Program-made: the position numbers
Shown here: positions 15,001-17,071 of the stretch, piece by piece
Layout: every line of letters begins with the position of its first letter
Numbering within the stretch: position 1 is the first letter of the stretch
DNA from: a virus
Taxonomy: Duplodnaviria > Heunggongvirae > Uroviricota > Caudoviricetes
Direction: 5' to 3' (one strand)
Length of the DNA: 17,071 nt
Virus record (IMG/VR): IMGVR_UViG_2695420569_000026
Location: 1-17,071 of that record

Positions 15001-17071
15001 GGCTGTCCTGACCGCTTCCACTGGTCAGGCGCAGACTGAAGCGCACACCCTTCACCACCCGCGGCGTGTCCCATTTCGCCTGCGCCAGATACCGGCCGTC
15101 AGCTGCGCTCACCTCCACCGTCAGGTGCTGCACTGCCGGTGGGATGACGCTGTTCAGGGAACCTGACTGCGGCTCAAAGCGGGCACCGTTATCCACGATG
15201 GCTTCTTTTTCCGGTACGTGCTGCACCGCCGTGATGGCAAAGGTGCCGTCCGTGTTTTCCCGGATGGAGACACAGCGGAACAGGCGACGGCGCAGTGACG
15301 GCAGGGAGAGTCCCCACACCCCGTATGTCTCCACACCATCAGGCAGGGTACTGACCTGTATCCGGTCCGGCGCGGGGTGTGCGGTGATGTCCACACTCAC
15401 CGGCTTACCGCTGCCGTTAATCAGGTTCACCGCCGATGTACCTGTCTCCGGCAGGGTAGCATTTTTCGCCGTCAGTCGCCCGTCTGGTGTCAGGGAAAAT
15501 GCCGGAGGATTACCGCCGCTGGTAATGGTGGGAGCCGTCAGATATTTCAGGAACACTTCATTCATGAATATCTGATCGCCCTGACCAACAAACATCGGCT
15601 TTGTGTTGCCATTCGCAGGATTAATCATCGCAATCCTGTCTGCTGCCAGCAGCACCTGACTCTGCATGCCGTCGGGGGTGTTCTCAATACCGGCACCGAT
15701 ACCCGCAATATAAAGGCGTCCGTCCTGCATCTGCTGCAGCTTCACTGCCCACATGCTGTTCAGGTTATTATTTGTATCAACCTGAACCTTCTGTATCTGC
15801 TGGATCGCTGCACTCTGGTCTTCCAGTTTCTTATTGACGGTCTGTGTTATTTCATTGCTGACATCCGTTATGGACGTCCTGATTTCAGTCAGGTCAGGCG
15901 CAAGCTGACCGTTATCAATCTGCGTCCACAGCTCCTGAGCCAGATGGGTTTTCCCTATCTCGCCTTTGAAAAAATCCAGATAGCCGGATGCATCATCACT
16001 CGGCTGACCAACAGCCTCCACGAATGCCGATTTGCCAACGGTGTTCACACTGCGGATATAAAAGTAATAATCATGGCCCGGTTTGATATTGATACTGGCG
16101 GCTATCCAGTACAGCCCCGTGCCAAGGTAGCGGGCTGTGGTTTCAACCTGCCTGATATCGGTAATCCGCGTTTCCGAAAACCAGAACTCAAACTGTACCG
16201 TCGGGTCATACACCGCAAGACGCGGGACCGCTGTTATCTGAAAATAGCCCGGTGTCAGCTCAATCGTGGCGGGTACCGCAGGTGCATTAATCCTGAACGT
16301 GGTGGTGGCCGGTTCCCCCTGCTGGCCATAACTGTTAATTGCCCTGACTGTCAGGGTGTATTCCCCGAGCGGCAGACCACTGAAACGATGCTCTGTATCC
16401 GCAGTGATGGCGGTGGTCACCAGACGGCTGTCTTCTCCGCTTCCGTTGGTCAGGCGCAGACTGAAGCGCACACCCTTCACCACCCGCGGCGTGTCCCATT
16501 TCGCCTGTGCCAGATACTGACCGTCAGCCGCGCTCACCTCCACCGTCAGGTGCTGCACTGCCGGTGGAATAACGCTGTTCAGGGAACCTGACTGCGGCTC
16601 AAAGCTGGCCCCGTTATCCACAATGGCTTCTTTTTCCGGTACGTGCTGCACCGCCGTGATGGCAAAGGTGCCCTCCGTGTTTTCCCGGATGGAGACACAG
16701 CGGAACAGGCGACGACGCAGTGACGGCAGGGAGAGTCCCCATACACCGTATGTCTCCACACCATCAGGCAGGGTGCTGACCTGTATCCGGTCCGGCGCGG
16801 GGTGTGCAGTGATGTCCACACTCACCGGCTTACCGCTGCCGTTAATCAGGTTCACCGTGGCGGCACCGGTCTCCGGAAGTGTCACTTCACGGTCCAGCGT
16901 CAGGGTGCGGGTGGCAGCATCAATGGACAGGACACGTCCGCCGGTCATGGTCCCGGCATAGTCGTTATCACAGATTTCAATGATGTCACCGGGTGTGTGA
17001 CGCAGCCCCTGTGACCCGAGCGTGAAATCCACCGTCTGCGTTTCCAGCTGTCCGGTCTTTATCACCCACAG

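Follow-up and report, generated by a model that had tools for sequence, protein, structure and literature searches.

The in-frame join of two tail-tip gene segments at 15458/15459 of the stretch of DNA analysed here (hereafter the window, 17,071 bp) is almost certainly not a real feature; the sequence observation itself is confirmed, and the biology drawn from it is unsupported. This join, the third of three within the J-derived sequence of the window and here termed junction 3, very probably arose by scaffolding or gap closing in a draft assembly, to judge from the assembled sequences, and we infer that reads spanning it are absent. The verdict is reached because the joins are unique to one record, because a sister contig has single Ns at its joins and carries one of the joined fragments in native context, because deletion of the intervening block restores an ordinary J gene, and because the fragment edges lie where an assembly graph would fork. 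The initial annotation implied a real fused tail protein, an implication left unsupported by a short-read draft, a junction found nowhere else, the single-N gaps of the sister contig and the deletion that restores J. Mis-joined contigs, which the same annotation had named as its refutation, are what the assembled sequences point to.

The window corresponds to the entire contig CYAW01000085.1 (17,071 bp) of the E. coli draft assembly GCA_001286145.1, as identified by exact-protein look-up. One end of the contig lies in IS2 and the other in the interior of J, both of which are multi-copy repeats, and ends in multi-copy sequence of this kind are typical of short-read assembly. From the contig numbering and size, we infer that short-read data lie behind the record. 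A literature search on the assembly and WGS accessions of the contig produced no match.

The plus strand carries a truncated IS2 transposase gene (33–785), within which the contig terminus falls; in related genomes, this IS2 is an annotated pseudogene with remnants of nleB and gogB-like effector genes on either side. On the minus strand are espN, a type III effector of 1,133 aa (1328–4729), and nleL, a type III effector of 782 aa with pentapeptide repeats and SopA-type E3 ligase domains (5320–7668), followed by a side tail fibre gene with collagen repeats (8155–9474), by lom (9533–10132) and by three ORFs derived from J, the lambda-type gene for tail-tip attachment and host specificity, of 519 aa (10203–11762), 760 aa (11800–14082) and 985 aa (14108–17065). 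The position of espN and nleL (1328-7668) downstream of the tail fibre genes is the usual position of effector cargo in lambdoid prophages adjoining potB. In the complete genomes of the related O55:H7 DEC5E and O157:H7 493/89, the block of effectors, tail fibre and lom adjoins potB and is followed by a single J of ~3.47 kb. The best complete-genome match to the non-J part of the window is ~99%, and the strain appears to represent a lineage without a close relative among complete genomes. Two repeat features lie outside the J region. The side tail fibre gene contains seven imperfect direct repeats of 43 nt (8389-8692), which encode collagen-like G-X-Y runs (GPQGPKGD), and a 65-nt inverted repeat pair (959-1023 and 3528-3592, 86% complementary) has one arm in the AT-rich spacer between IS2 and espN and the other within espN; this pair may be a chance product of AT-rich sequence.

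Junction 3 lies on the minus strand and is abrupt, passing from the end of a variant-1 J fragment (15459) to the first base of a second fragment, X1 (15458). The minus-strand sequence over the join is GACGGGCGACTGACGGCGAAAAATGC followed directly by TACCCTGCCGGAGACAGGTACATCGGCGGTG, and a second reading gives CTGACGGCGAAAAATGC on the near side and TACCCTGCCGGAGACAGGTACATCG on the far side. The variant-1 J body stops at 15459 with the residues RLTAKNA, and from 15458 onward the protein reads TLPETGTSA. At this point the sequence steps back by ~1.5 kb in J coordinates, so that J nt ~3020 is coupled to J nt ~1530. A switch from variant-1 body to common region near 15455-15460, as the initial annotation described, is thus borne out, and can be placed at 15458/15459. 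To the left of the join, 15459–16520 is identical to 10738–11799 of the lom-proximal variant-1 J (1,062 nt, 0 mismatches), which upholds the counterpart proposed at 10738; past the equivalent of 15459, the intact variant-1 copy continues as GGATATCAGTGG, given in the second reading as GGATATCAG (NADISG). To the right, 15174–15473 aligns with the common region at 13460–13759 with 91% identity, and the counterpart of 15458 falls at about 13744, not at the 13739 originally proposed. The two sides have no shared sequence at the join. Homologous unequal crossing-over at junction 3 was considered and is ruled out, as the join lacks shared sequence.

The frame is kept across the join, as had been claimed, an outcome with a one-in-three likelihood by chance. 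The left break falls after codon position 2, since (17065−15459+1) mod 3 = 2, and the base that opens the right-hand side occupies codon position 3 in its native gene; the two together complete GC plus T as Ala536, and the frame runs on from RLTAKNA, ending at residue 536, into TLPETGTSA, beginning with T at residue 537. The residues GTSA beside the join had been regarded as unique to the junction, and they are indeed unique among the copies within the window. The sister contig has these residues behind normal upstream sequence, and gpJ genes annotated in complete genomes match at 100% identity; GTSA is therefore an ordinary J allele rather than a product of the junction. Sequence specific to X1, GGAGACAGGTACATCGGCG, lies close by at 15433–15451.

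The J region of the contig is composed of four pieces, drawn from at least three J alleles and arranged head to tail, with the order in gene orientation being A, X1, an inverted scrap, X2 and the V1 tail, all on the minus strand. Fragment A (15459..17071) starts at the contig edge with J nt ~1345, takes in the Ig-like domains and the variant-1 tip-fibre body and ends in RLTAKNA, and its last 1,062 nt (15459–16520) are an exact duplicate of 10738–11799. Fragment X1 (14167..15458) belongs to a different J allele and runs from TLPETGTSA to NPEDGNTTP, with common region followed by variant-2 body. Fragment X2 (11800..14091) represents a third J allele, from J nt ~1190 to its own stop codon, and carries the variant-2 receptor-binding end. 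X1 and X2 differ at 40 positions, all of which lie within 14915–15458, the first being 15458 itself, and the last 748 nt of X1 are identical to X2. Between X1 and X2, at junction 2, is a filler (14092..14166) that repeats in inverted orientation ~75–80 nt of J, derived from sequence normally ~50–130 nt upstream of the X2 start; this scrap overlaps the X1 end by 7 nt (CACGCCG), and its sequence is present in forward orientation in the sister contig (positions 1448–1513). At junction 1 (11799-11800), the variant-2 stop codon TGA (11800–11802) abuts the middle of a variant-1 J gene. From there, the V1 tail (10203..11799), the variant-1 J 3' part adjoining lom, repeats the last 1,062 nt of A exactly and then continues to the variant-1 stop codon.

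The fragments become a single gene once the middle is taken out. Removal of 11799–15458, a block bracketed by the perfect 1,062-nt direct repeat, makes the V1 tail continuous with fragment A and yields one colinear J. A reconstruction composed of 17071→15459 plus 10737→10150 (2,201 nt) aligns as a single piece to annotated gpJ of complete genomes, with 100% coverage and 98.3% identity, and in 1,829 records a single place accounts for 80% or more of its length. When placed on complete genomes, X1 and X2 fall on one and the same ~2.29-kb segment of a single J, and not on a tandem pair. Most probably, the real gene is 17071→15459 joined to 10737→10203, an ordinary J with a variant-1 receptor-binding domain, and downstream of it would most probably lie lom, the side tail fibre gene, nleL and espN.

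The domain content of the predicted proteins follows the same pattern of ordinary parts in an unusual order. Pfam assigns Ig_J, Ig_J_second and Phage_Tail_Tip to all three J-derived ORFs and Ig_GpJ_C to the 760- and 519-aa ORFs; Phage-tail_3 is matched by the 985- and 760-aa ORFs only, with a score for the 985-aa ORF of 21.8 against the Pfam curated cut-off of 23 bits. The 985-aa ORF, which crosses junction 3, contains Ig_J, Ig_J_second and Phage_Tail_Tip twice over, and the earlier description of two consecutive common, fibronectin-III-like blocks in the predicted protein is correct to this extent. Neither Ig_GpJ_C nor another C-terminal receptor-binding domain was found in this ORF by Pfam, and it is not a single colinear domain set ending in a receptor-binding domain; its C-terminus consists of 19 out-of-context residues from the inverted J scrap at junction 2. 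The 760-aa piece matches the lambda J structures (8IYK/8K35) over residues 399–836 and C-terminal parts (E = 1.5e-287). As deposited, the 985-aa ORF is the 974-aa CTT75965.1, with its start at 17032, and the depositor's call of the 760-aa ORF starts six bases later (758 aa). In the exact look-up, the 758- and 974-aa products occur on CYAW01000085.1 alone.

With three J 3' parts and two different receptor-binding ends lying head to tail, the region could be read as a set of silent tandem J 3' cassettes that are moved into an expressed J in a programmed switch of host range, with junction 3 as an intermediate, and switching of tail fibres does exist in other phages (Mu Gin, P1 Cin, BPP-1). Mu Gin and P1 Cin are inversion systems, and BPP-1 is a diversity-generating retroelement. 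The resemblance to these systems is only superficial and is limited to the placement of alternative receptor-binding ends side by side: the window has no inverted crossover sites, no recombinase, no reverse transcriptase and no template and variable repeat pair, its copies are direct, and its arrangement is conserved nowhere. Only direct repeats were found between 10.2 and 17 kb, the sole inverted pair of the window (959–1023/3528–3592) is far from J, and there is no invertase, integrase or reverse-transcriptase ORF in the window, where the sole mobile-element gene is the truncated IS2 transposase gene. Related prophages have a single ~3.47 kb J at the same chromosomal site, the array is absent from 5,426 complete genomes, and the evidence for an artefact counts against a programmed switch as well. 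The probability of such a mechanism is accordingly close to nil.

None of the three junctions was recovered from complete genomes. Of 5,426 complete E. coli genomes, 3,962 match one half or the other of a 321-nt probe for junction 3, but not a single genome spans it, and junctions 1 and 2 were likewise spanned by 0 of the 5,426. The lone full-coverage row for junction 1 consists of two pieces over 794 bp at 92%, a different arrangement. That two-piece match lies in the complete genome of strain DLI.5a (NZ_CP103972.1, 4792773-4793566), with the halves ~470 bp apart, at a locus annotated as a 'DUF3672 domain-containing protein' and a 'TipJ family phage tail tip protein'; the J gene there may truly be disrupted or rearranged. 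For junction 3, there was no spanning match in 50,697 phage records, and its exact string is absent from the GTDB representative genomes, JGI metagenomes and IMG/VR.

Protein searches gave the same outcome. The fused 974-aa product is the sole member of its 90%-identity cluster in a set of about 15 billion proteins. An 83-aa junction-spanning peptide found no spanning match in a collection of 5.8 billion proteins, a search that returned 87 candidates, all of 146 aa or less, and not the source protein, although the collection contains it; negatives obtained there with short junction peptides therefore carry little weight. The best high-identity match covered at most 61% of the peptide, and three matches of higher coverage and low identity (P0018, P0029 and P0024) continue canonically, as TAKNADISG.

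The most direct comparison is offered by the sister contig CYBE01000123.1 (L004; 7,347 bp), from the neighbouring accession GCA_001286205.1, which also carries the 519-aa product. This contig holds the same four fragments in the same order, with 100% or near-100% identity, and has single Ns at all three joins (1447, 3069 and 5362), whereas the window contig has no N anywhere. Scaffolders customarily insert a single N as a placeholder where two contigs are presumed to abut and no overlap is found. Window base 11799, with which the V1 tail begins, aligns to the N at 5362, and the N at 3069 corresponds to the base before the X2 start; X2 and the V1 tail start at the same base in both contigs. The other two edges differ: fragment A reaches 15459 in the window but only the equivalent of 15584 in the sister contig, and X1 reaches 14167 in the window but only the equivalent of 14279 in the sister contig. 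In the sister contig, the X1 allele extends ~440 nt further upstream as normal colinear J, straight through the site of junction 3. This native X1 context (641 nt) is 100% identical to ordinary gpJ genes, with 522 records at 99% or more, and its colinearity in both the sister contig and complete genomes indicates that X1 belongs to a normal J gene. If the Ns are such placeholders, the window looks like the same scaffold after they had been filled in. The possibility that junction 1 is genuine, with a variant-2 J followed by a variant-1 remnant, and that junction 3 alone is an artefact was considered and rejected, as junction 1 is missing from all 5,426 complete genomes and is marked by an N in the sister contig.

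A variant of the artefact would place the error before assembly, in real chimeric molecules (a library or PCR chimera, or a template switch in amplification) that the assembler then followed. A join without homology would fit such an origin, as would the fold-back-like inverted piece at junction 2 with its 7-nt overlap (CACGCCG) at one edge, but chimeric reads are rare and seldom beat true paths, and it would be surprising if chimeras accounted for three junctions in one contig as well as for N-marked joins at matching fragment starts in another assembly. We regard this origin as highly improbable.

The positions of the fragment edges were examined in an alignment of five J alleles: A plus the V1 tail, X1 from the sister contig, X2, the DEC5E J and the 493/89 J. 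X1 opens with T (15458), against G in each of the other four alleles, and the V1 tail opens with T (11799), against C in the other four. The base before the X2 start is G, C or T among the alleles, and the variant-1 base just past the break is G where the others have T or C. All four boundaries examined therefore fall on variant columns or, for the X2 start, immediately beside one. Variable columns number 22 of 301 and 31 of 298 near the two fragment starts, and the chance that both starts would hit variable sites is ~0.8%. The nodes of a de Bruijn assembly graph begin at forks. Edges at allelic variant sites are as expected of such forks, and illegitimate recombination has no reason to produce them. 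It should be noted that the identical run just upstream of the fragment start is 27 nt for X1 versus X2 and 8 nt for the V1 tail versus X2; both runs are shorter than the usual k-mer sizes, and the fork argument consequently needs further J alleles of the strain outside the window.

The same observations bear on whether the rearrangement is real, that is, a strain-private illegitimate recombination among prophage J genes that left a tandem partial J array in a decaying prophage, with the in-frame fusion lying within a pseudogene. The continuity of the contig, which has no N, speaks for a real event, as does the sister isolate with the same fragment order; EHEC-type genomes also hold up to about 15 J-related places able to recombine, and the complete genomes nearest to the window share only ~99% identity with its non-J part. 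Against this, the joins in the sister contig are single Ns only and its break points differ, its X1 allele is normal through the junction-3 site, all of the examined fragment edges lie on or beside allelic variant sites, and the junction is in no other collection searched. A perfect 1,062-nt duplicate and a 748-nt identical tail of X1 and X2 would, moreover, normally collapse in a short-read assembly, and an ORF without a receptor-binding domain would give no working tail protein even if genuine. A real rearrangement is thus unlikely. Hardly likely, too, is the array itself as a genuine structure, in which a defective, effector-bearing prophage of a pathogenic E. coli lineage would carry three tandem J 3' parts with non-homologous joins, the in-frame fusion of J to J among them.

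Mis-assembly, the preferred reading, can be set out as a sequence of steps. Lambdoid prophages are numerous in the genomes of pathogenic E. coli, and long stretches of their J genes are near-identical. In a strain with several lambdoid prophages, such near-identical J stretches would have been collapsed in the assembly graph. X1 and X2 would have come from the J genes of other prophages of the same strain, and the scaffolder would have chained them between the 5' and 3' parts of the prophage's own variant-1 J. Gap closing may then have extended or duplicated the variant-1 and variant-2 bodies and erased the Ns.

Among known phenomena, the closest kind to junction 3 is the repeat-induced scaffold mis-join in EHEC and EPEC lambdoid prophage genes. 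The likeness includes a short contig bounded by IS2 and J, paralogous allele fragments in series, an exact duplication around the inserted block, single-N joins in the sister assembly, edges at forks, an inverted scrap at one join and a junction unique to the record. Unlike mis-joins that are flagged, the Ns have been closed in CYAW01000085.1, and nothing in the record marks the joins. Comparison with lambda gpJ (8IYK/8K35) identifies every fragment as ordinary gpJ, with the canonical Pfam domain order within each. Real gpJ genes, ~3.47 kb in related prophages, have one copy per domain and one receptor-binding end, whereas the 985-aa ORF has two middle sets and no such end. Natural J mosaics offer a partial parallel, in that common-region alleles are combined with variant-1 or variant-2 C-terminal ends (O157, O145, O55, O103 and others). 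These mosaics are colinear, have crossovers in homologous sequence and keep the gene length, whereas junction 3 is non-colinear and without homology.

Should junction 3 be real, it would give a rare example of a tail-tip protein whose Ig/FN3-like blocks are duplicated and would document illegitimate recombination between co-resident prophages, and a real array would provide a natural store of alternative receptor-binding ends for homologous recombination with other prophages. If the real J is instead a single ordinary gene, as is most probable, no two-block fusion protein exists. The combination of a junction unique to one draft record, edges on allelic variant sites and N-marked joins in a sister assembly provides a simple screen for mis-joins of this kind. 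The chimeric ORF is public as CTT75965.1, "tail protein (partial) of prophage CP-933X", and records like it can mislead surveys of receptor-binding protein architecture, counts of domain duplication and the typing of prophages.
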